64,000 nt of DNA from the NCBI GenBank assembly GCA_963422645.2, contig CAXXVO010000018.1, positions 1-64,000 of the forward strand, in the 5' to 3' direction. The notes beneath the pieces are model-generated. The model saw only the letters and a list, made by a program, of their open reading frames with translations. It ran no database searches and was not told where the DNA came from. The position numbers and the translations under genes were made by a program. The stretch is from Alphaproteobacteria bacterium (lineage in GTDB: Bacteria > Pseudomonadota > Alphaproteobacteria > UBA828). This document shows positions 30,543-44,009 of the stretch, piece after piece (positions within the stretch are counted from its first letter, which is position 1; each line of letters begins with the position of its first letter).

Positions 30543-32281
30543 GTGCGCGCCAAGCTGCGGCACGGACATCTGTGGACCGTTGGTTAGAACAGGTTCCGAT
30601 CGCTCAGCAGAGCCCGACCTAGAATGGTCGGTAGGCCTGCGGTAGCCTGCGGGTGCTGGAGTCCGTGGCTCCTCAACTCCAGCCGCACAGGATCGGGATG
30701 ACAGATCGACATGGAAGCAGGCGACCGATTCTTCGAACGCCCGATCCTCAATTCACCCTACGAGTATCCTTTGGTAACTGCCCAGGTCGTCTGATTTGTC
30801 ATTTTGGGCCAGTGGATTGAGGCGTTTCTCGTTCGGAGTTGGTGGAAAGGGCTTGACGGGAATTTCGGGAAATGACTCAACAACGACATGAGCAATCCCG
30901 AGTCGCCGCGCGGCCCTTCGACGGGAGCAGCGCCCGAAACGCCCGCGCAGAAGATCGCCCGCCTGGAGGAGGAGAACGCCCGGCTTCGGGAGGAAAATGC
31001 CTGGCTTCGGCAGCAGAACGCGCGGCTGGAAGAGCAAGTCGCGCGTCTCGTCGAGCGCATCGAGGAGTTGGAGCGCCGTCTCGGCCTCAACAGCGGCAAC
31101 AGCGGCAAGCCGCCTTCGAGCGATGGGCTGAGGAAGCCGAATTCGAAGCGGCGAACCCGAAGCCTGCGCGGCAAATCGGGCCGCAAGCCCGGTGGCCAGC
31201 CCGGCCACAAGGGCAAGACGCTGCGCCGCGCCGATCACCCGGATCGGGTGAAGGATCACGTCCCGGCTTCCTGCAAGGGATGCGGTTCGCCGCTTTCGGA
31301 CGCGGCCAGGGCGGGAACGCCCGTCGCCCGCCAGGTGTTCGATCTGCCCGAGCCGAGCCCCCTGGAGGTGACCGAGCACCGGGCGCATGCCAAGTGCTGC
31401 GGGCATTGCGGGACGGTGACCCGGGCGGCGTTCCCCGACGGGGTGTCGGCGCCGGTGCAGTACGGCCCGCGCATTGCCGGGGTGGCGGTCTACCTTCAGC
31501 ACGCTCACTTCCTGCCGGAGGATCGGCTGTCGCAGGTGATGGCCGAGCTCTTCGGCGCGCCGGTGACGGCTGCGACGTTGGCGACGATGAGCGAGAGGGC
31601 GGCCGAGCGGCTGCGGGACGCGGCCTTGCACATACAGGACCTGGCGGCGGGCACGGCGCGGGTGAAACACATGGACGAGACCGGCTTGCGGATCGGCGGT
31701 CAGACGCAGTGGCTTCATGTGATCTGCACGCCGCTGCTGGCGGCGTACCGGGTCAGCGGCAAGCGCGGCGCCCTGCTCTCGGGTGTCTCCGGCATCGTCG
31801 TGCACGATCACTGGAAGCCGTACTTCGCGATGGAAGGGGTGGAGCACGGCCTGTGCAACGCCCATCACCTGCGGGAGTTGCAGGCGCTGGTGGACATCGA
31901 AGGGGAGGCTTGGGCCCGGCGGATGCAGCAGCTCCTGCGCCGAGCCAATCGCGCCGCCCGCATCGCGCTGGACAAGGATATCGCCGTTCCGGCGAGGCTT
32001 GTGGCGCTGATCGAGCGCCGATACGACGAGATCATCGCCGATGCGCTGGCCTTTCACGAGAGCCAACCACCGTTCTCGCCTGGCAAGAGGAAGAAGCGCC
32101 GGAAGCGAAGGATCGGTCACAATCTGGCCTTGAGGCTGCGCGACCACAAATGCGCGGTGCTCCGGTTCCTGATCGACCTCGAGGTCGGGTTCACGAACAA
32201 CGAGGCCGAGCGCGACCTTCGGATGATGAAGCTGCGCCAGAAGATCTCCGGGGGCTTCCGGTCCGCGCAGGGGGCCGAGAA

Positions 32282-33932
32282 GACGCCCTGAACGCAAAAG
32301 GCAACCTTCGCCTTCGGTGCTGTGGTTGCCGGGTTTCGACGGGTCTGGACCGCCGCCTGGCGATCCCGAGATTGGGATTGAATGGCGAATGGTGATTTTG
32401 TCCTCGGTGACCAACACCTCCTTCACGATGAGCCGGACGATGCGCTGCCGTTCGGCGATGTCCAGGGTTTCGGCGGACGAGTGCAGCCGCGCCAGAAAGC
32501 CGGTCAGCGTCTCGGCGAGCCGGAGATAGGTCTCGCGATCCTTCGCCCGATCGACGGTGGATTGCAGTTCGCGATTCAGAGCCTGATCCTGACGACGGAG
32601 CTCGGGCGTTCTGTCGCGCAGTTCATCGATTGTAATCAACTCCTCCTGATAGGCGTTGACCAGGCGGTCGATGCTTTTTCGGACCCGGATCAGACGGTGC
32701 CGCAGGTCGTTCTCGCGCTGCTGGTTTGGATCGGAAGCGCGGGCCGCCTGTAGTCGCCGGTCGATCTCGGCGCCGATCAGTGCTGGATCCTCGAGCAGGC
32801 GGACCACTTCGCCCCAGACGACGTCATCGAGCAAGTCCTGGCGCACCGGCCGACTGTCGCACACCGGTCCGTTGAGATGGCGCCAAGAGTCAGAACCCAG
32901 GCAGCGATAATAGGAGATCTTGCGGGCACTCGTCTGGGCCGATGTGCGAGACAGCGCGTAGCCGCATTTGCCGCACGAGACCAGTCCCTGGAGCACGCTG
33001 GGCGTCTTCGTGCGACGCGGCGCGTGGATCTTGTTCATCTCCAGCCGCTCTTCGGCCAGGGCGAAGGTCTCTTCGCTGACGATCGCCGGCACCGGGATCT
33101 CGATCCACTCCTCACGCGGTTTTTCGTGACCGCCGGTCGTGCCGCTGGCCACGCCGCGGCGCAGGCGCAGAGGACGTGTCACACATTTACGCGGCATCTG
33201 GCGGGTCTTGCCGAAACAGGCTTTCCCCTTGTACGCCGGATTGCGGAGCATCGCCCACACCGTCGAGCGTTCCCAGCGCGAGCGCCCGGTGGAGGTGGGT
33301 ACCGCGCGCTCATTGAGCCTGCAGGTGATCGCGCCGATGCTCATGTGATCGCAGGTGTAGCAGCGGTAAACCTCGCGAACCACCGACGCCTGCGGCTCGA
33401 CGATTTCGTAGAACGCATCGCTGTCCGGGGTTTTCTTGTGGTAGCGGTAGCCATAGGGCGCGCCGCCGAGGACGGCGATTTCGCCGCGTCGCGCCCGATG
33501 TCGCTTGCCGCGCCGGGAACGCTCCAGGATTTGCGCGCGCTCGTATTCCGCAATCATGCCCTGGAACTGGACGAGCAGATGATCTTCCGGGGTTTCCATC
33601 GACGGCGCTCTCAAGAACACGGTCTCGACGCCCTGACGGGCCAGCTCCTCGATGATCAGAACCTGGTAGGCATAGCGCCGGCTCATACGGTCCGGGGCAT
33701 GGACCAGCACCGTGTCGATGCGCCCTTCCGCGGCGAGATCCCTGACCCGCTCGAGCCCCGGGCGTTCGAGAACGGCGCCGGTATAGCCGTCATCTTCAAT
33801 GATCATGTCGGGCGCGACGCTGTAACCGTGGTCCTCGGCGTAGGCGATCAGGGCCTCGGTCTGGCTCGCTATCGTGTTGTCATCTCTCTGCCGCTCGCCG
33901 GAGACCCGCGCGTAAATGGCTGCGATCTTCAT
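32282..33932 (-). CDS. Large serine recombinase; no stop inside the element, frame stays open to 30753
   Basis: YARVS catalytic Ser, DRMSR, YGYRY recombinase domain, CGKCG..YYRC zinc ribbon, coiled coil. Confidence 0.9.
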
Positions 33933-34130
33933 GGTCGTCTCCTATGTCCTGCGCTCGGACCGGGATTTGCCGTGAAACAGATTCTGGCGAGGGACGCGCG
34001 GTGACGCTCCAACCCCGAGGTCACGGCGTTGGCTGAGACCGCCAGGGTCGGCGCGGCGGAGACGAGCGGTGGACTTCCCCGATGTGGTCCGAAGCGGTCC
34101 CGCGTAGCCGGCTGACGAGATGCGGGCCGC

Positions 34131-35381
34131 TCAGGCGGCCTTGAGTTCCGCGCCTACGGGCTCGATGTAGCCGTAGCGGCGGAGCATGCGGATCCACCGA
34201 GGAGCGTTGCGCTTGACCATCAGAGCGTCGTAGTCGGCCGTGCGGTCGTAGTAGGGCCTGCCGGTCTTGAGCACCACATAGATGATGCGCAGCATCTTGT
34301 GAGCGCCGGCGACGATGGCGCGCTTGTAGCCGCGCCGGGCGGCGAGGGCGCGGTGATGAGCCTCGAACTGGCACCCCTTGGTTCGGGCCGCGCCGTGGGC
34401 ACACTCGACGAGGCAGGCGCGCAGGGTCTTGGAGCCCATGCGGGTGCGTGCGTTGCGGCGCTTGCCCCCGCTCTCGTTGTTGCCGGGGCAGAGCCCGGCC
34501 CAGGCGGCGAAGTGCTCCTTGGAGGCGAACACGCCGATGTCGGGGCCGATCTCGATGAGGATGGTCGAGGCGGCGGTGCGGTCGATGCCGGGGATGGTGG
34601 TCAGCAGACGGAGCTGCTCCTCCCACGGTGTCATCTGCCCGTCGATCTTCCTGGTGTAGGACGCGATGCGCGCCTCAAGCGCGTCATGCTCCTCCAGCAG
34701 GTCGTTGAGCATGAAGCGGTCGTTGTCGCCCAGGCTCAGGGTGAGCGCCTCGCCGAGCCCCTCCAGCTTGTTCGCAACGTGGCTGGTGAGCGAGGCGAGG
34801 ATGACCTCGCGCGCCGTCCCCTGCGCCAGGCCGTCGAGGATCTTCCGGCCGTTGACGCCGAAGACGTCGGAGAGGATGCCGCCGATGCGCGCACCGGCGC
34901 GGTCGATGATCTTCTGCACGCGGTTGCGCACGGCGGAGCGCTGCCTGACCAGGACGCGGCGCTGGCGGCTCAGTGCGCGCAGCTCCCGGAACGGCTCAGG
35001 CGGAACGTGGGAAGGCGTGCAGAGCCCGAACTGGCACACGCAGGCCAGCCACACGCTGTCCGCCACGTCGGTCTTGCGCCCCTTCAACTGCTTCACCTGA
35101 CGCGCATGCACCAGGATCGCCTCGAGCCCGGCCGCCTCCAGGGCCGCGAAGGGCGCCTGCCAGTAGACCCCGGTCCCTTCCATCACCGCAGCCTCGACGC
35201 CGTGACCGGTCAGCCACGCGACCATCTCCTCCAGACCGCTCGGCAGCGTGCCGAAGCAGCGCGTCTCCACCACCGGCTCACCCTCGCCCTCACAGAGGCG
35301 AACCGTCGCGGTGATCTCCATCTTGTGCACGTCCAGACCCGCCGCGCGCGGCCGGACGACGTGCAAGCCTTCCGTCTTCAT
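34131..35381 (-). CDS. IS110-family DEDD recombinase/transposase
   Basis: GLDVHK, MEGTGVYW, RKTDVADS, IPGI, WAGLCPGNNESGGK. Confidence 0.93.
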   Translation of the reverse strand: MKTEGLHVVRPRAAGLDVHKMEITATVRLCEGEGEPVVETRCFGTLPSGLEEMVAWLTGHGVEAAVMEGTGVYWQAPFAALEAAGLEAILVHARQVKQLKGRKTDVADSVWLACVCQFGLCTPSHVPPEPFRELRALSRQRRVLVRQRSAVRNRVQKIIDRAGARIGGILSDVFGVNGRKILDGLAQGTAREVILASLTSHVANKLEGLGEALTLSLGDNDRFMLNDLLEEHDALEARIASYTRKIDGQMTPWEEQLRLLTTIPGIDRTAASTILIEIGPDIGVFASKEHFAAWAGLCPGNNESGGKRRNARTRMGSKTLRACLVECAHGAARTKGCQFEAHHRALAARRGYKRAIVAGAHKMLRIIYVVLKTGRPYYDRTADYDALMVKRNAPRWIRMLRRYGYIEPVGAELKAA

Positions 35382-35446
35382 CGCCTTCCTCCTCATTTGC
35401 GCTCTCGCCACGGCGGCGTACGATCACGCCGTGGCATCGCCACGGT

Positions 35447-35623
35447 GGAGGCGGGGACAGCGGTCGGAAGAACACGCATCCGACGAGCGGGTGCGGTGCA
35501 ATTTGCCGCGCGTCCACGGCCACGGGCCGGGTACAATACGGGGTGCGGAGCCGGCCGCCGGAAGCAGTTTTGTCATCGGGAACTACGTCACCGATATAAC
35601 GACGCTCACACGTCCCCACCTCC
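35447..35623 (-). ncRNA. Candidate IS110 bridge RNA
   Basis: Non-coding left end; 12-bp closing stem with one G-U pair; internal matches to the target flank and the donor end. Confidence 0.5.
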
Positions 35624-35846
35624 GCCAATACCCATCCTGACACGGCAAATGGGTGCAAGCGCAAGGAAAACGTCAGCCGAACCGCTCCTGTTTCATGCCA
35701 CGGGGTGGCTCAGAACCGCGGGGACCATGACTGTTTTGTGAGTTTGATCGGGCACCAGGATCGCGTAGGCGTTGTGGAGTTTGGCGTCGAGCAGACGATC
35801 GAAGGCATAAGCGAGGTGAACCGTGGGCCGAGCGCCCAAGCGACGT

Positions 35847-36176
35847 TCAGCCATGCCGATCCGCGTCCGATAAAAAGCGTCTCAGCGCCCGCGCGACGAT
35901 CTCCCCGATGGAGTGGCCGCTGCTCCTGGCGTGGGCTCGCAAGGTCTCCGCCAGAGTGCCTGGAATCTTGATGGTGATCGGGATCAGCTCTTCGGTCGGC
36001 TCGGCCGGCTGGCCCATGGCGCGCGCGTCCTGGACGTAGCGATAGGACTGACGCTGCGACAGCCCGAAGCGCTGCGACAGCCGTGCCACGGCTTCGCTCG
36101 CCGTGGCGCCCTGGGCGAGCAGCGTGTAGGCGGCATTGAGCCGCTCGACCTTCTGGGATCTTGTTGACCGGATCAT
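35847..36176 (-). CDS. Small HTH / ribbon-helix-helix-like DNA-binding protein of the recombinase element
   Basis: RFGLSQRQSYRYV HTH-like segment; ITIKIPGTLAETLRAHA..SIGEIVARALRRFL RHH-like segment. Confidence 0.65.
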   Translation of the reverse strand: MIRSTRSQKVERLNAAYTLLAQGATASEAVARLSQRFGLSQRQSYRYVQDARAMGQPAEPTEELIPITIKIPGTLAETLRAHARSSGHSIGEIVARALRRFLSDADRHG

Positions 36177-36480
36177 TTGCCATAAGAATATTACCGTTTG
36201 CGGCGCAAGTCAGTCAAGGGACGGTCTCGCCATTCCACAATCTGACGTTCGAAGCGGAAGTTACCTTTTGCGTTCAGGGCGTCAGCTTCGCCATCCTGCG
36301 CAGCGTCATCACCACCGCCAGAAAGCAGGGCTGGAATATCATCGAAGCCCTGACCAGCCCATCGGATCGGCTCATCGCCACCGTCAAGTGCGCGTAAGCT
36401 CACCTGGCACGGGTTCTCCAACAGCGGAGCCATTCTCATAAACGATCATGGTCGACGCCGTGCTGGACCACCCCATAGAA

Positions 36481-36665
36481 TGAAAATCGGTGCCCGTCGC
36501 GCGGGCGGACTTCGGGCCACATCGGGGTAGCTTACCGGTCGCAGTCCGCAAGAGGGGCATCGTGAGCTGTGAAACCCGGCGACCCCAGAGGAGCACACGG
36601 GCGTCGCGTGGGTAGCGTTGTGCCGAATCCCAGAGAATTTTCACAGCAAGAACCTGGGCAGTTAC
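36481..36665 (+). repeat. 185-bp IS66 right-end segment, repeated at 46419-46602
   Basis: The two copies read as identical apart from one G in a G run. Confidence 0.9.
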
Positions 36666-39600
36666 ATCCTTTGCAGCACTGGGAGCTTGACGAGAGCGGC
36701 CAGCCCACCAACCGCATCCTCGAGCTGCGGCGTCAGGTCTCGTTCATCACGCCGATCCCCAAGCCAAAGAAGAGCAAGGGGTCGCAACAGACGCTGATCT
36801 TCGACGAGGAAGCACAGCGGGTCGCGACCGAAGGCCAGCAATACGAGCTGGCGCAGACGATCAACAGCGTACGGAATGCCGTCGATCGCTGGCGGGAGCT
36901 GCCAGATCAAGGACAGTGGCGCGTGACACCGGAGACGGCCCGGCTGCTGCACCACTGGCGCCACCACAGGTTCAACGATATCCGCCCTTTCTTCTGCCAG
37001 GTCGAGGCGGTGGAGACGGCGATTTGGCTAACCGAGGTCGCACCCCAGATCGCCGCAGGACGCCGGTTCCTCGAACACCTGGACAACGCGAACAAGGAAG
37101 CCAATCCGGCGCTCTCCAGGTTGGCGCTGAAGCTCGCCACCGGCGCAGGCAAGACCACCGTGATGGCCATGCTCATCGCATGGCAGACGATCAACGCGGT
37201 GCGCCGCCCGAACAGCAGGCGCTTCACGCGGGGCTTCCTGATCGTCACTCCCGGCATCACCATCAAGGACCGGCTCCGGGTGCTCCAGCCCAACGACCCG
37301 GACAGCTACTACCAGAGCCGTGAGCTGGTACCGGGCGACATGCTGGGCGATCTCGAACGAGCGAAGATCGTCATCACCAACTTCCATGCCTTCAAGCGCC
37401 GCGAAACGATGGAGGTCTCCAAGGGCGGCCGGGCTCTGCTCCAGGGTCGCGGTCCCGATATAAGGTCGACCGAGAGCGAAGGACAGATGCTTCAGCGGGT
37501 CATGCCCGAGATCATGGGCATGAAGAACGTGCTCGCGCTGAACGACGAGGCGCACCACTGCTATCGCGAGAAGCCCGGCGAGGACGACGAAGGCAACCTG
37601 AAGGGCGAGGACCGCAAGGAAGCCGAGAAGAACCGCGAAGCCGCGAGGCTGTGGATTTCCGGGTTGGAGGCGGTGGGTCAGAAGCTCGGCCTCACCCGCG
37701 TGATCGACCTCTCGGCGACGCCCTTCTTCCTGCGCGGCTCGGGCTACGCGGAAGGGACGCTCTTCCCCTGGACGATGAGCGACTTCTCCCTCATGGACGC
37801 CATCGAGTGCGGAATCGTCAAGCTGCCCCGTGTGCCGGTGGCCGACAACATCCCCGGCGGCGACATGCCGAAGTTCCGCAACCTGTGGGAGCATATCCGC
37901 AAGGACATGCCGAGGAAGGGGCGCGGCAAGACCTCCAATCTCAATCCGCTGCAGATTCCCGTAACTCTGCAGACGGCGCTGGAGGCCCTCTACGGTCACT
38001 ACGAGAAGACCTTCGCTCTCTGGCACGAGGCCGGCATCGAGGTCCCGCCCTGCTTCATCGTGGTCTGCAACAACACCTCGACCTCGAAGCTCATCTACGA
38101 CTACATCGCGGGCTTCCAACGAGAAAACCCGGATGGCTCCACGACTCTGGTCAACGGTCGGCTCAAGCTGTTCCAAAATTTTGACGAGCATGGCACCCCG
38201 CTCGCGCGCCCGCGCACTCTCCTGATCGACAGCGAACAGCTCGAGTCCGGCGATGCGCTCGACAAGAACTTCCGCGCCATGGCGGCGGACGAGATCGAGC
38301 GCTTCCGCTGGGAGATCATCAAGCGCACGGGCGACAAGAAGCGGGCTGATAACCTCTCCGACCAGGACCTGCTGCGTGAGGCGATGAACACTGTTGGCAA
38401 GGAAGGCCGGCTCGGCGGCGCGACCCGCTGCGTCGTCTCGGTCTCGATGCTGACCGAGGGGTGGGACGCAAACACCGTCACCCACGTGCTCGGCGTGCGC
38501 GCCTTCGGCACGCAGCTCCTTTGCGAGCAGGCGGTGGGCCGGGCGCTGCGCCGGCAATCCTACGAGCTGAGCGACGACAACCTGTTTCCCGTCGAGTACG
38601 CCGACGTGCTCGGCATCCCCTTCGACTTCACAGCGAAGCCTGTGGTCGCCCCGCCGCAGAAGCCCACCAACGCGGTCCAGGTCAAAGCGATTACGCCGGA
38701 GCGCGACCGCTGCGAAATCCGTTTTCCGCGTGTCCAGGGTTACCGCGTCGAATTGCCGGAGGAACGATTACAGGCGACCTTCACTGCCGATGACACGCTG
38801 GTTCTGACGCCCGCGCTCGTCGGCCCCTCTCGCACTCGGGTTGAGGGGATTATCGGTGAGGGGGTCGATCTCAACCTGGTTCACACGGGCGATCTGCGCC
38901 GCTCGACCCTGCTGTTTCACCTCACCAAGCGTCTGCTGGAGACGAAGTGGTGCGATCCGGGAGAGGAGCCGAAGCTCCACCTGTTCGGCCAGCTCAAGCG
39001 GGTTGCACGGCAGTGGCTCGACGATCATCTCGTCTGCAAGGGCGGCACGTACCCGGCGCAGCTCATGTATCTGGAGTTGGCGGACATGGCCTGCGAGCGC
39101 ATCACGCGAGGGATCGTCGAGCGGCATGTGGACGAGCGCCCCGTGAAGGCGGTGCTCGATCCCTACAATCCCGCCGGCTCGACGATCCACGTGCGCCTCA
39201 CTACGTCGAAGAAGACGCTGAGGAAGACCGATGCCCGCTATTGCCACATCAACTATGTCGTCTGCGACAGCGACTGGGAGGACCAGTTCTGTTTCGTGGC
39301 CGAGGGGCATCCCCGCGTCCGCGCCTACGTCAAGAACCACGGACTGGGCCTCGAAGTGCCCTATCTGCGCGGTTCCGAGCCGCACAGATACATCCCCGAC
39401 TTCATCGTGCTGGTGGACGACGGCCGTGGCGAGGACGACCCGCTGCACCTGATTGTCGAAGTCAAGGGCTACCGCGGCGAAGACGCGAAGGTGAAGAAGG
39501 CGACCATGGAGACCTATTGGGTGCCGGGCGTGAATGCGCTCGGCACCTTCGGGCGCTGGGCCTTCGCCGAGTTCACGGATGTCTACGAGTTCGAGGCGGG

Positions 39601-39683
39601 GTTCGACGCGCTTGTCCGTGGCTTTCTTCTCAAAGATGCTGCCGAATGAAACCGACTCACTCGGGCACCGGAAGGAACCAGAT

Positions 39684-40622: not shown

Positions 40623-41492
40623 ATGGCGAAGCGAAAGAAGAAGTCGAAGTCCGTCGAGACGCTCACGCATGGCGAGGCGGCGCGGCGCAACATCCCGACC
40701 GCCGAATACCACCCCGTCATGGCCGACGAGGACAAGGCGCCGATCCGCGCGGCCTACGAGCGCCGTAACCGCGACCTCGACCCGCAGCTCGTCTGGCGCG
40801 GCAAGGACGAGCAGGACATGGCCGACCTCGTCGTCCAGGCGCCGCCGCTCTACATCCAGGAGAAGGTGCACCCAAAAGTCCTGATCGACGAACTGCTGCG
40901 GCAAACGAAGGAACGGCGGGAGGAGGAGGCGCCCACCGCGCCCGACCTCTTCGCCGATTTCAACGGCCTGCCTGACGGCGCTGCGCGCACCGAGTTCTAC
41001 CGTCACGACGCCAACTGGTCGAACCGCATGATCCTCGGCGACAGCCTGCAGGTCATGGCCTCGCTGGCGGAGCGCGAGGGCCTGCGCGGCAAGGTGCAGT
41101 GCATCTATATCGACCCGCCCTACGGCATCCGCTTCAACTCCAACTTCCAGTGGTCCACCACCAGCCGCGACGTGAAGGACGGCAAGGCCCAGCACATTAC
41201 CCGCGAGCCCGAGCAGGTGAAGGCCTTTCGCGACACCTGGCGCGACGGCATCCACTCCTACCTGAGCTACCTGCGCGACCGGCTGACCGTGGCGCGCGAC
41301 CTGTTGACCGAAAGCGGTTCGGTCTTCGTGCAGATCGGCGATGAGAACGTGCACCGCGTTCGCGCGTTGATGGACGAAATGTTGTAACTACCCAGGTACC
41401 CCGCCGCCAGTTCTGAGTGCGTGCTGATGTTGCTTGCCGTCGGTGCCGTTTCGCCGTCGGCGCGTCGTTGATCCCCGCTTGACTGTATAGGT

Positions 41493-44009
41493 TCAGACTT
41501 CCTGACCTCGTGATGCTGGCTGTTCTGGGCAGCGTGCCGGGAACTCCTTGAATTCTGATACATTTCGGTTGTTTCAGGCGGTTTTTCGCTGGGTGTCGCG
41601 CCCGAGGTCTGATATTATAATTTGATACCAATTGCACGGGGTCTCAACCATGCCCAGTACCCTCCCAATGTGCCCTCCAGAGGCGGTCTCGATCGGCAAC
41701 AGCTGCTTCGCCGTCCTGATCTCGGACGACACCTTCACCTACTTTTCCAACCTCATTCCCTTTGACAGCCACGCCGCCGATGACCGCACGGCCATGCTCT
41801 TGCGGATCGGCCGCCTCGCGGCGATCAGCGCGGTCTCGCCGCAGGAACTGGCTGACGCTTTCGCTGTCTCGCGCGCGACGGTGCAGCGCGCACGACGGCG
41901 CTACCTGGCCGAGGGCGAAGCGGGGTTCATGAAGCCCCGGCGCGGTCGCGGGCCGTCGGTGTTCACTCCGGAGTTGGCGGAGAAGGCGACGGCGTTGCTG
42001 GCATCGGGCCTGAGCGGCTCTGCGGCGGCCCGGGTTCTCGGCGTGTCAGCGCCATCGGTCAACAAGTGGCGCCGTCAGGGACTGATCGGCAACACGGAGG
42101 CGGATGGGGAGCCCGGACGCTCAGCGCTGGCTGCGCCGCCTGACGCGGGTGCGGCTCCTGAAGGCCGTGTCGATGAAGAGAGTACCGGTGCCCCGGGGCC
42201 GGAGACGGCGCCGGGGCTGGAAGCGCAGCCGCAAACGGATCGCAGCGCGCGCGATCGGCGGGACCGGCAGGCGCCGATGGGGCGTGCGACTTGCGATGTT
42301 CCGGCTCGGGTTCTGGCCAGTTGTGGACAGGCGGGGCCGGTCGAACCGCAGTTCGCCGCCGCCGCCCGCGGTGTCCGCTTCGGCGGCGTGCTCGCCGCCC
42401 TGCCGGCCCTGCTGAAGGAAGGTCTTCTCTCCGAGACCGGTCTCCTGCCATTGCTGCCGAAGGGCTATTACGGCTTGCCTACGATCCTGCTCTTCCTGGC
42501 CTTCATGACCTTGGCGCGGGTGCGCAACCCCGAGAGCCTGCGCTACCAGGCGCCGGGCGAATGGGGCGCCATTCTCGGCCTCGATCGCTGCCCCGAGGTC
42601 AAGACGCTGCGCCGCAAGATCGCTCTCATCGCCGACGACGAGGCCGGCGTGCGGGCGTGGCAGCTCGCCCTTGCCAGGCGCTGGCAGGCGCCGACGAGCC
42701 GGAGCTCTGGGCGACGCTGGCCATCGACGGGCACGTCAAGGTCTACTCCGGCCGCAAGGGGCGCTTGCCCAAGCACTTCGTCTCGCGCGAGAAGCTGTGC
42801 CTGCCGGCGAGCGCCAGCTACTGGATCAACGCTCTGGGCGGCAAGCCGCTGCTCTGTCTGCACAAGCCGCTGGACCCGAAGATGGTCGCGGCCATCGAAG
42901 CCGACGTGGTGCCGGCGCTGCAGGAGCTTGGGATCGTTGGCGCCGGGGCGCCGGACCTGACCGCCGAGCATCCCGGCCAGCCGGCGCTCACCCTGGTCTT
43001 CGACCGCGAGGGCTGGAGCCCGGATCTGTTCCGCCGGCTGGCGAGGCGCGGCGTCGCCTGCCTGACCTGGCACAAGAACTTCAGGGGCGAGGACTGGCCG
43101 GCCGAGGACTTCGGCGCGATGACCGTTCCCATTCACGGACCGGCGGCGGACGGCAGCGCCACCATGCGGCTGGCTGAGAAGCCGGTGACGTTGCCGAACG
43201 GCTTCAGGGTGCGCCAGATCCGCCGCCTGCTCGACAACGGCCGTCAGGTGCCGCTGATCACCACCGATCCGCACAAGCCGATGGCTGAGGTTGCGGGCGC
43301 CATGTTCTCGCGCTGGTCGCAGGAGAACTTCTTCAAGTACATGCGTGACGAGTTCAATCTCGACGCCCTGCCGACCCACGAGCTCGAGCCTCTCGATCCC
43401 GCCGCCATGGTCGTCAACCCGCTGCGGCGGGCCTATGACAAGGCAATCCATCGCCTCGACCGCCAGCTTGGCCGCCTGCGCAACCGCATCGCCGACACGG
43501 CCCGGAAGAAGCAGCCGACGGCGGAACTCAGGAGGGAAGTCAGGGACCTCCAGGATGTCCGCGACATCGTCAGGGCCAGCCGCAGGGAGACGCCCAAGCA
43601 CTGCCGGGCCGGCGACCTCGACGAAGCCGAGCAGCTCGATGCCTTGCCCGCGCGCGAGCGCCTCCTCCTCGACGTCATCCGGATGATCGCCTACCGCGCC
43701 GAAACCCGCATGATGCTTCCCGTCATGCAGGCGCAGGGCCACAAGCCCCATCCCCGGAAACTGCTTCAAGCGCTGCTCACCGCCGATGCCGACATCCTGC
43801 CGGATCCTGGCAATGGCCTCCTGCGGGTCCACATTCTTGGCCTCGCAAACGACGCCTGCGACCGTTGGATCGATGCGGTTCTGAGCGACCTGAACGCCAC
43901 CGAAACGGTCTTCCCCGGCACCCGTCTGCGCATAGTCTACGACATCGACGGGGCCTCGGAATCCGCGCGGCTCGTGTCACCTAAAATCAGCAGAGGTCAG
44001 GAAGTCTGA
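41493..44009 (+). mobile_element. Unclassified DDE-type IS, copy 1; frameshifted transposase 41650-44009
   Basis: 17-bp inverted repeats TCAGACTTCCTGACCTC / GAGGTCAGGAAGTCTGA; N-terminal HTH; IDGH, FDREG, RWSQENFFK motifs; frame change near 42690. Confidence 0.8.

Follow-up and report, generated by a model that had tools for sequence, protein, structure and literature searches.

The closest described relatives of the system analyzed here are the insertion sequence (IS) IS621, which is guided by a bridge RNA (PMC11208160, PMC11208158), and the seekRNA-guided elements of the IS1111 and IS110 types (PMC11187229). In the published accounts of IS621, a DEDD/serine recombinase is combined with an RNA from the left end, upstream of the gene, and with a 2-nucleotide (nt) core, CT, that is common to target and donor; the loops of this RNA are described as a stem, the left guide, a stem-loop and the right guide (PMC11208158). 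According to the seekRNA report, the IS1111-type RNA carries the top-strand complement first and the IS110-type RNA shows the reverse arrangement (PMC11187229). Bridge RNAs have been predicted in 85.7% of the IS110-group elements (Durrant et al. 2024, PMC11208160). The element examined here is found in a 64,000-nt stretch of an alphaproteobacterial genome (assembly GCA_963422645.2, contig CAXXVO010000018.1, positions 1 to 64,000; hereinafter, the window) and is very probably an intact IS110-family IS with a bridge RNA of about 180 nt encoded in its left end. The mechanism has been known since 2024, and the element provides a new example of it, with IS621 and the seekRNA elements as the nearest described systems. 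As far as the IS621 accounts go (PMC11208160, PMC11208158), the similarity extends to the recombinase, the left-end location of the candidate RNA, the 2-nt core shared by target and donor, the presence of one segment with the sense of the left target plus core and of another with the sense of the left donor plus core, and the placement of the target module before the donor module.

The assignment draws on the observed ends of the element, the target logo and two kinds of covariation, one between paired positions of the structure and one linking the two left guides to target and donor. The ends come from the 48 copies in this genome and from two paralogous sites that lack the element; together, these delineate a complete element of 1,768 bp (window 35733..33966, minus strand). 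Both empty sites read ...ACTCACAAAATCCCGGTCC..., or ...GATCAAACTCACAAAATCCCGGTCCGAG... in another excerpt; the occupied site exceeds the empty one by 1,768 bp, AA(A) is common to both, there is no target-site duplication, and the two empty sites pin the element ends to within the A-run. The outline with the corrected ends is CAGTCATGG...CACGGCAAA, also written CAGTCATGG...TTTCACGGCAAA, and the insertion context of this copy is ...CACAAAA/TCCCGG..., with the slash at the junction. The features of the element ends are the following.

33966..35733, minus strand: complete IS110-family IS, which starts with CAGTCATGGTCC and finishes with TTTCACGGCAAA
35734..35739, minus strand: left flank ACAAAA, the left target half plus the core (plus one base), from 33 unique left flanks
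33960..33965, minus strand: right flank TCCCGG, the right half of the target in this copy, which directly adjoins CACAAAA at the empty sites
33966..33974, minus strand: right-end terminus CACGGCAAA, the left donor half plus the core AA plus one A, which varies in relatives (CACGGC/CACAGC/CACAAC) together with the donor guide
35723..35733, minus strand: left-end terminus, the variable triplet CAG followed by the conserved TCATGGTC; the triplets of relatives differ and NCATGG is kept

The left-terminus triplet in relatives is CAG, CCG, CCT, CGC, TGA, CGG, CTG, CTC, CGT or CGA, and in all relatives CACGGC at the right terminus is flanked by TTT...AAA, to be compared with the short (2-3 bp) subterminal inverted repeat of the IS110 group. 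Over the 33 unique sites, the last six bases of the left flank are A29 C33 A32 A33 A33 A33; after ...CACGGC, the 33 unique right flanks show A33, A32 (T1), A24/G8/T1 and T14/G8/C7/A4, with nothing conserved beyond. The third A is variable at the right junction only, and conservation in the right flanks of the other copies ends after the first base. The effective target is ACAAA followed by a preferred A and preceded by a weak G (17/33). The dinucleotide common to target and donor is AA, contained in ACAAAA of the target and in GGCAAA of the donor. We infer that the core is the AA that directly follows ACA and GGC, a register chosen because the top-strand cut in IS621 is reported to be 3' of the core (PMC11208158); the next base is then the first base of the right flank, usually A. 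Placing the core at the last two A's of the guides is less likely: the third base after GGC is not A in 9 of the 33 right flanks (G 8, T 1), and the left flanks depart from AAAA in one of 33, at the first A, whereas, with cleavage 3' of the core as in IS621, a variable core base would be expected at the left junction. A single copy (C6:66373) has the right junction GGC-AT instead of GGC-AA and is the sole one with a non-A base at the second core position, which may reflect a mismatched core or a later mutation.

The sequence-only reading of the window had placed the element at 33964-35740, an interval too long by 7 bases of the left flank and 2 bases of the right flank, and had proposed a TC core with ATGGTC and CCGGTC as the right halves. 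The empty sites and the 48 copies rule out the TC core, and these right halves are artefacts of the misplaced ends. It had also considered the target match to stop short of the core; with the corrected ends, the match comprises the left target plus the core. Accordingly, of the bridge RNA that it suggested, the left-end location and the places of both guides hold, given their covariation with flanks and ends and the covarying fold, but the core, junctions and ends do not. For annotation, the lesson is that guessing the ends from one copy can misplace them by several bases if the core is part of a homopolymer.

The recombinase is encoded in the interior of the element, in an arrangement that agrees with the published characteristics of the IS110 group (PMC11208160), namely, a left non-coding end (352 nt, upstream of the gene) that is longer than the right one (165 nt, downstream) and contains the RNA region.

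34131..35381, minus strand: recombinase gene, 416 amino acids (aa), with matches to the Pfam domains DEDD_Tnp_IS110 (E 1.8e-23) and Transposase_20 (E 4.5e-21), that is, PF01548 and PF02371

The protein is distantly related to the IS621 transposase (chain 8wt6_A, E 6.3e-16), and it is longer, at 416 aa against 326 aa (the latter length per the preprint 10.64898/2026.08.14.744561). The ESG serine and the KTDxxD motif are aligned, with MEGTG, KTDVAD and NESG of this protein opposite IEATG, KTDTVD and YESG of IS621, motifs that in the IS621 account hold E60, D102/D105 and S241 (PMC11208158). The first D of DEDD was taken from GLDVHK by reading the open reading frame (ORF) and lies outside the 8wt6_A alignment.

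The relatives used for comparison comprise 57 loci with protein identities from 97% to 42%, sampled at one genome per species, together with 6 metagenome loci and one sister genome. The nearest plasmid-borne relatives show at most 42% identity, and 401 sampled genomes of the class contain only two relatives, at 40%. A search of five further genomes for additional insertion sites of the relatives yielded no extra copies of those types. The scaffold alignment (A1) consists of 26 sequences, the window and 25 of 27 chosen representatives; the other two (L092, L112) failed the anchor patterns. Truncated loci and the nested locus L108 were excluded. The guide-flank and right-target pairs were counted only for loci in which the patterns recognized all three features, namely, guide, end and flank (no guide call was obtained for L056, L057 and L059), and L113, with a flank cut by the contig end, was scored 0 and retained. 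The left ends of the relatives align on a conserved scaffold, and the parts that vary are exactly the two guide segments. The predicted RNA and its parts are located as follows.

35446..35624, minus strand: bridge-RNA scaffold, with the outer stem P1 formed by a 5' strand (35624-35613) and a 3' strand (35457-35446), predicted from 26 relatives
35562..35607, minus strand: putative target-binding stem-loop, with P_T (35607-35603 with 35566-35562), an internal loop and the distal hairpin P2 (35593-35577)
35568..35576, minus strand: left target guide AUGACAAAA, on the 3' side of the target loop, unpaired in the consensus and followed by an invariant C at 35567
35594..35602, minus strand: candidate right target guide 'x', UCGUUAUAU, on the 5' side of the target loop, weak in this element
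35458..35560, minus strand: putative donor-binding multiloop, with P_J (35560-35557 with 35461-35458) and P_D (35553-35551 with 35467-35465)
35535-35511 and 35496-35475, minus strand: hairpins P4 and P5 of the donor multiloop
35502..35510, minus strand: left donor guide CGCGGCAAA, between P4 and P5, unpaired in the consensus
35641..35650, minus strand: inverted copy of the right-end terminus, AUUUGCCGUG, upstream of the scaffold

The left target guide AUGACAAAA has the sequence of the left target plus the core in the same sense as the left flank, has the core at its end and is identical to the conserved target GACAAAA, in agreement with the target logo from the 33 unique sites. In the relatives, the first variable segment agrees with the respective left flank over most of its length, as in the guide and flank pairs AGAUCUAAA and CATCTAAA, AACGCAAA and GACGCAAA, ACACCAAA and TCACCAAA, UUGAGAAA and GTTGAGAAA, and UGUUGAAA and CGTTGAAA. 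Across 38 distinct guide-flank pairs with 23 guide variants, the cognate match is 3.63 of the 5 variable positions compared to 1.17 for non-cognate pairs, and this agreement, taken at face value, is reached in 0 of 20,000 permutations of the guide types. The left donor guide CGCGGCAAA has the sequence of the right end plus the core, again in the same sense, and equals the right terminus CGGCAAA (cognate score of 6.06 against 4.03 in the window scan). It tracks the right terminus through the CGGC, CAGC and CAAC variants (three only), with one discordant pair, that of L108. A scan of all alignment windows peaks only at the two left guides, with differences of 2.8 and 2.0 compared to less than 0.9 elsewhere.

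Both words on which the sequence-only reading had relied are located where it placed them, ACAAAAC at 35567-35573 and CGGCAAAT at 35501-35508 (both on the minus strand), and so are the 12-nt arms GGAGGTGGGGAC (35623-35612) and GTCCCCGCCTCC (35458-35447) that close a 177-nt stretch and the inverted copy at 35641-35650 (CGGCAAAT on the plus strand at 35643-35650). Both matches gain strength from the correction of the ends; furthermore, both lie in unpaired loops of the consensus fold rather than in paired stems and covary with the targets. The two words occur 5 and 6 times in the 64-kb window, on both strands, against 1.6 and 2.1 expected, and the number of chance matches expected in a 352-nt left end is about 0.005 (our own arithmetic, with the genome composition).

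The excluded locus L108 contains a gene-less miniature derivative of about 240 bp, extending from left terminus to right terminus and located about 130-371 nt upstream of its recombinase start. The miniature is inserted exactly after AAA of the target-guide-coding DNA of a full copy, so that the guide DNA served as the target, which is to be expected if the guide mimics the target.

RNAalifold, applied to the 26 scaffolds, yields six helices with 36 pairs, arranged as the outer stem P1, the target stem-loop (P_T, the internal loop and P2), and P_J and P_D enclosing P4, the donor guide and P5. Paired combinations occupy 95.6% of the cells, compared to 87.9% in shuffled alignments (0 of 500 shuffles reach the observed value) and to 41-53% when the partners are slid, a control that favors the fold given that the latter was derived from the same alignment. 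Changes on both sides, that is, compensatory ones, are found in 11 pairs. Examples include the pair 36/87 of P_T (GC 13, UA 10, AU 2, CG 1), the pair 57/70 of P2 (AU 14, GC 12) and the pair 92/203 of P_J (CG 11, GC 11). P4 is nearly invariant and hence uninformative on pairing either way. The P5 stretch is folded by ViennaRNA into a hairpin, with differing sequences, in 26 of 26 relatives, although the hairpin is weak or shifted in two of these (L104 and L106).

The right target half appears to be read differently. The segment x is the most variable one besides the guides, and in the relatives it is complementary to the core and the right flank, with a mean longest run of 4.11 nt against 3.29 nt for non-cognate pairs (28 distinct pairs, 18 x types, a fraction of 0.0002 of 5,000 permutations); an unbiased scan peaks at the x columns. 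Examples are CCGCAU opposite ATGCGG, GAAGGU opposite ACCTTC and CGUUUU opposite AAAACG. The left target guide directly adjoins the closing stem, so that no strand remains on the 3' side of the target loop. Several differences from IS621 as described so far (PMC11208160, PMC11208158) follow from these comparisons: the core is AA within an A-run rather than CT, the 3' side of the target loop is where the left (bottom-strand) target guide is found, the donor module has the form of a multiloop, each of the two left guides extends by one A past the always-shared AA, and the scans detect no right-donor guide. Compared to the seekRNA scheme (PMC11187229), the element has the IS110 layout, with the non-coding region upstream of the gene, but the IS1111 order if x is the right guide, whereas the natural reprogramming among relatives is shared with the seekRNAs of both element types. 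The RNA layout differs from the studied examples, although the clade may already be covered by the supplementary tables or covariance models of Durrant et al.

For the right donor half, a scan for cognate excess of complementarity or identity to the triplet covered all 14-16-column windows of the scaffold, of the complete left end and of the final 175 nt at the right end. The best window differs by 0.33, compared to 2.0-2.8 for the left guides. Candidates dropped by eye are the strand after the donor guide, the P4 loop, the P5 loop, GUAUUGUA before P4, GAAACAG at element positions 40-46, and the right-end CTG, considered as an inverted repeat of CAG. The upstream inverted copy AUUUGCCGUG, a 10-nt copy of the terminus 84 nt inside the left end, was rejected as an anti-guide since, in distant relatives, it does not change along with the donor; near relatives retain only UGCCGUG. 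The word GCCGUG, the complement of the right-terminus word CACGGC, has two occurrences in the left end, one right before the donor guide, within the 3' strand of P4, which is invariant (window 35511-35520), and one in the upstream inverted copy (35641-35648), and could, judging from the sequence, mask the donor guide by pairing.

Under the proposed mechanism, the RNA would fold into an outer stem around a target-binding stem-loop with an internal loop and a donor-binding multiloop. In the target loop, AUGACAAAA on the 3' side would present the top-strand sequence of the insertion site (...ACA-AA-A), and in the donor loop, CGCGGCAAA would present the sequence of the right terminus (...CGGC-AA-A), with the DEDD/serine recombinase probably exchanging strands at the shared AA. 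By analogy with the work on IS621 and the seekRNAs, the RNA would be produced from the left end and bound by the recombinase, and the element would pass through a circular intermediate. Tentatively, and with considerable doubt, the clade can be viewed as a natural half-match system, in which the target loop runs from the right guide through a hairpin to the left guide, reversed relative to IS621 and as reported for the IS1111 seekRNAs, and the donor is read through its left half only. Weak reading of the right half fits the short effective target (ACAAA plus the preferred A), the 48 copies and the tandem arrays described below. If this holds, the low information content, with a target of 5-6 nt and no right-donor reading, would explain the burst to 48 identical copies and arrays, and the inverted loop order and absent right-donor guide would bear on the RNA-DNA pairing that is needed and on the origin of off-target and tandem insertion. 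The element adds a well-resolved natural system, documented by 33 independent insertions within a single genome, by two sites without the element and by 23 guide variants that arose through natural reprogramming among relatives. Its two left guides obey the guide rules established for IS621, although the 416-aa recombinase belongs to a distant lineage; the loop layout and the right-half reading differ.

Several results weigh against the interpretation as a bridge RNA with these guides. The RNA is a prediction from the comparison of sequences; its single-sequence fold is no better than shuffles (z of -0.14 and -1.56), which is why the comparative structure is relied upon; the search of Rfam 15 with positions 33500-36200 at E up to 10 gave sub-threshold chance matches only and no matching family; and neither a sigma-70-like promoter nor an intrinsic terminator is detectable across the natural junction of right and left ends (L116). 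The relatives represent few lineages, mostly metagenome-assembled genomes, so the permutation figures overstate independence, and the lengths of the A-runs may contain assembly homopolymer errors that blur the register of the core. On the right-hand side, the scans for a right-donor guide gave none, x of this element forms complementary runs of 2-4 nt only, the right flanks being barely conserved, and T at the second right-flank base is not clearly enriched (14/33 at occupied sites against 100/370 ACAAAA sites; 10 of about 24, by hand count, among the flanks with three A's).

These points leave room for alternatives of unequal weight. It is conceivable, if rather unlikely, that the element encodes a canonical four-guide bridge RNA organized as in IS621, the right guides of which pair with invariant bases, namely, the core AA, the next A and the C that opens nearly every left end. 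Covariation would be blind to such guides, and the donor guide would be located 3' of P5, in the strand that reads GUGUUCUU here. Variation next to the core is indeed almost absent, with AAA and then C in all relatives but one, so that a right-donor guide may pair with the invariant AAAC; UGUU in the strand 3' of P5 could pair with AACA, and L084 has AGUUU opposite AAACU. Nevertheless, most close relatives have GUGUCCU in this strand whatever the triplet, without the UU needed for the core; no window shows the right-donor excess seen for the left guides; and a target loop in which the left guide abuts the closing stem has no place for a right guide on the 3' side.

Far less probable is that the structure of the left end acts solely as a 5' untranslated region of the recombinase gene or as a regulatory DNA site for it, with the matches used as DNA copies. 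The location of the scaffold directly upstream of the gene, the identification of the RNA from sequence and the insertion into guide-coding DNA in L108 are compatible with this view, but the compensatory changes that retain Watson-Crick and G-U pairs point to selection on an RNA fold, and both variable segments track the flank and the terminus in 23 variants, as do the bridge RNAs and seekRNAs in the published reports (PMC11208160, PMC11187229). That the matches arose by chance and the protein alone picks the target sites can hardly be entertained. The effective target is short (5-6 nt), and about 370 ACAAAA sites remain, most of them unoccupied; against this stand the permutation result for the guide-flank agreement and the window scans that peak only at the two guides. 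The bridge RNA with two left guides is the reading preferred here.

Among the 48 copies in the genome, 47 have the full anchor spacing and are 100% identical over 1,766-1,768 aligned bases (BLAST), and one is 32 bp shorter. In the latter (C16:23524-25259), a 32-bp deletion between short direct repeats, at about element positions 297-318, lies just 3' of the scaffold, within a hairpin that is also absent in distant relatives and in L058. The count of 370 ACAAAA words refers to the copy-masked genome and includes the left junctions of the copies. Altogether, 17 copies belong to six head-to-tail arrays of 2, 2, 2, 3, 3 and 5 identical, complete units.

C11:48116-56956, C16:27180-32482 and C10:44758-50062: arrays of 5, 3 and 3 copies, respectively
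C8:169705-173239, C8:727931-731467 and C5:476526-480062: arrays of 2 copies each

The 11 internal array junctions are of two kinds, GGCAAA/CAG in 6, identical to the expected circle junction, and GGCAAAA/CAG in 5. The former would be the product expected of recombination via the left-donor half alone, and the latter fit ordinary insertion into a right junction GGCAAAA, which differs from the target by one mismatch. Half-match recombination and tandem IS110 modules that match through the left donor only have already been reported in 2026 preprints (10.64898/2026.08.14.744561, 10.64898/2026.08.31.748434); the six arrays of 2-5 complete copies resemble these tandem or expanded loci and fit half-match recombination. 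Unlike the tandem loci presented in those reports, all units here are identical, complete and from one genome, and five junctions have one extra A. Among the relatives, L104 is in tandem as well, with the right terminus of another copy as its left flank.

The copy in the window is nested within other mobile elements. It is inserted in a 2,237-bp unit (window 32282-33965 and 35734-36286) with genes for a ribbon-helix-helix protein (35847-36176) and for a large serine recombinase (start at 33932; Resolvase, Recombinase and Zn_ribbon_recom domains). Five copies of this unit are present in the genome; two lack the IS110 element, and the other three contain it as a single copy, an array of two and an array of three, respectively. 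The serine-recombinase unit in turn interrupts a repeat of about 1.9 kb (window about 30774-32281 and 36286-36665), which codes for an IS66-family transposase (DDE_Tnp_IS66, zf-IS66) and of which the genome contains well over 100 near-identical copies. This nesting also creates the 1,059-aa ORF at 30753..33932, a read-through artefact. Adjacent to the nested elements (window 36569-39649, plus strand), there is a gene for a 1,026-aa protein with a helicase domain of the type III restriction res-subunit and a sub-threshold match to an endonuclease domain (19.8 bits against the cut-off of 23.4). At about 41489-42000, the window contains a repeat of about 510 bp that is present in many dozens of copies across the genome.

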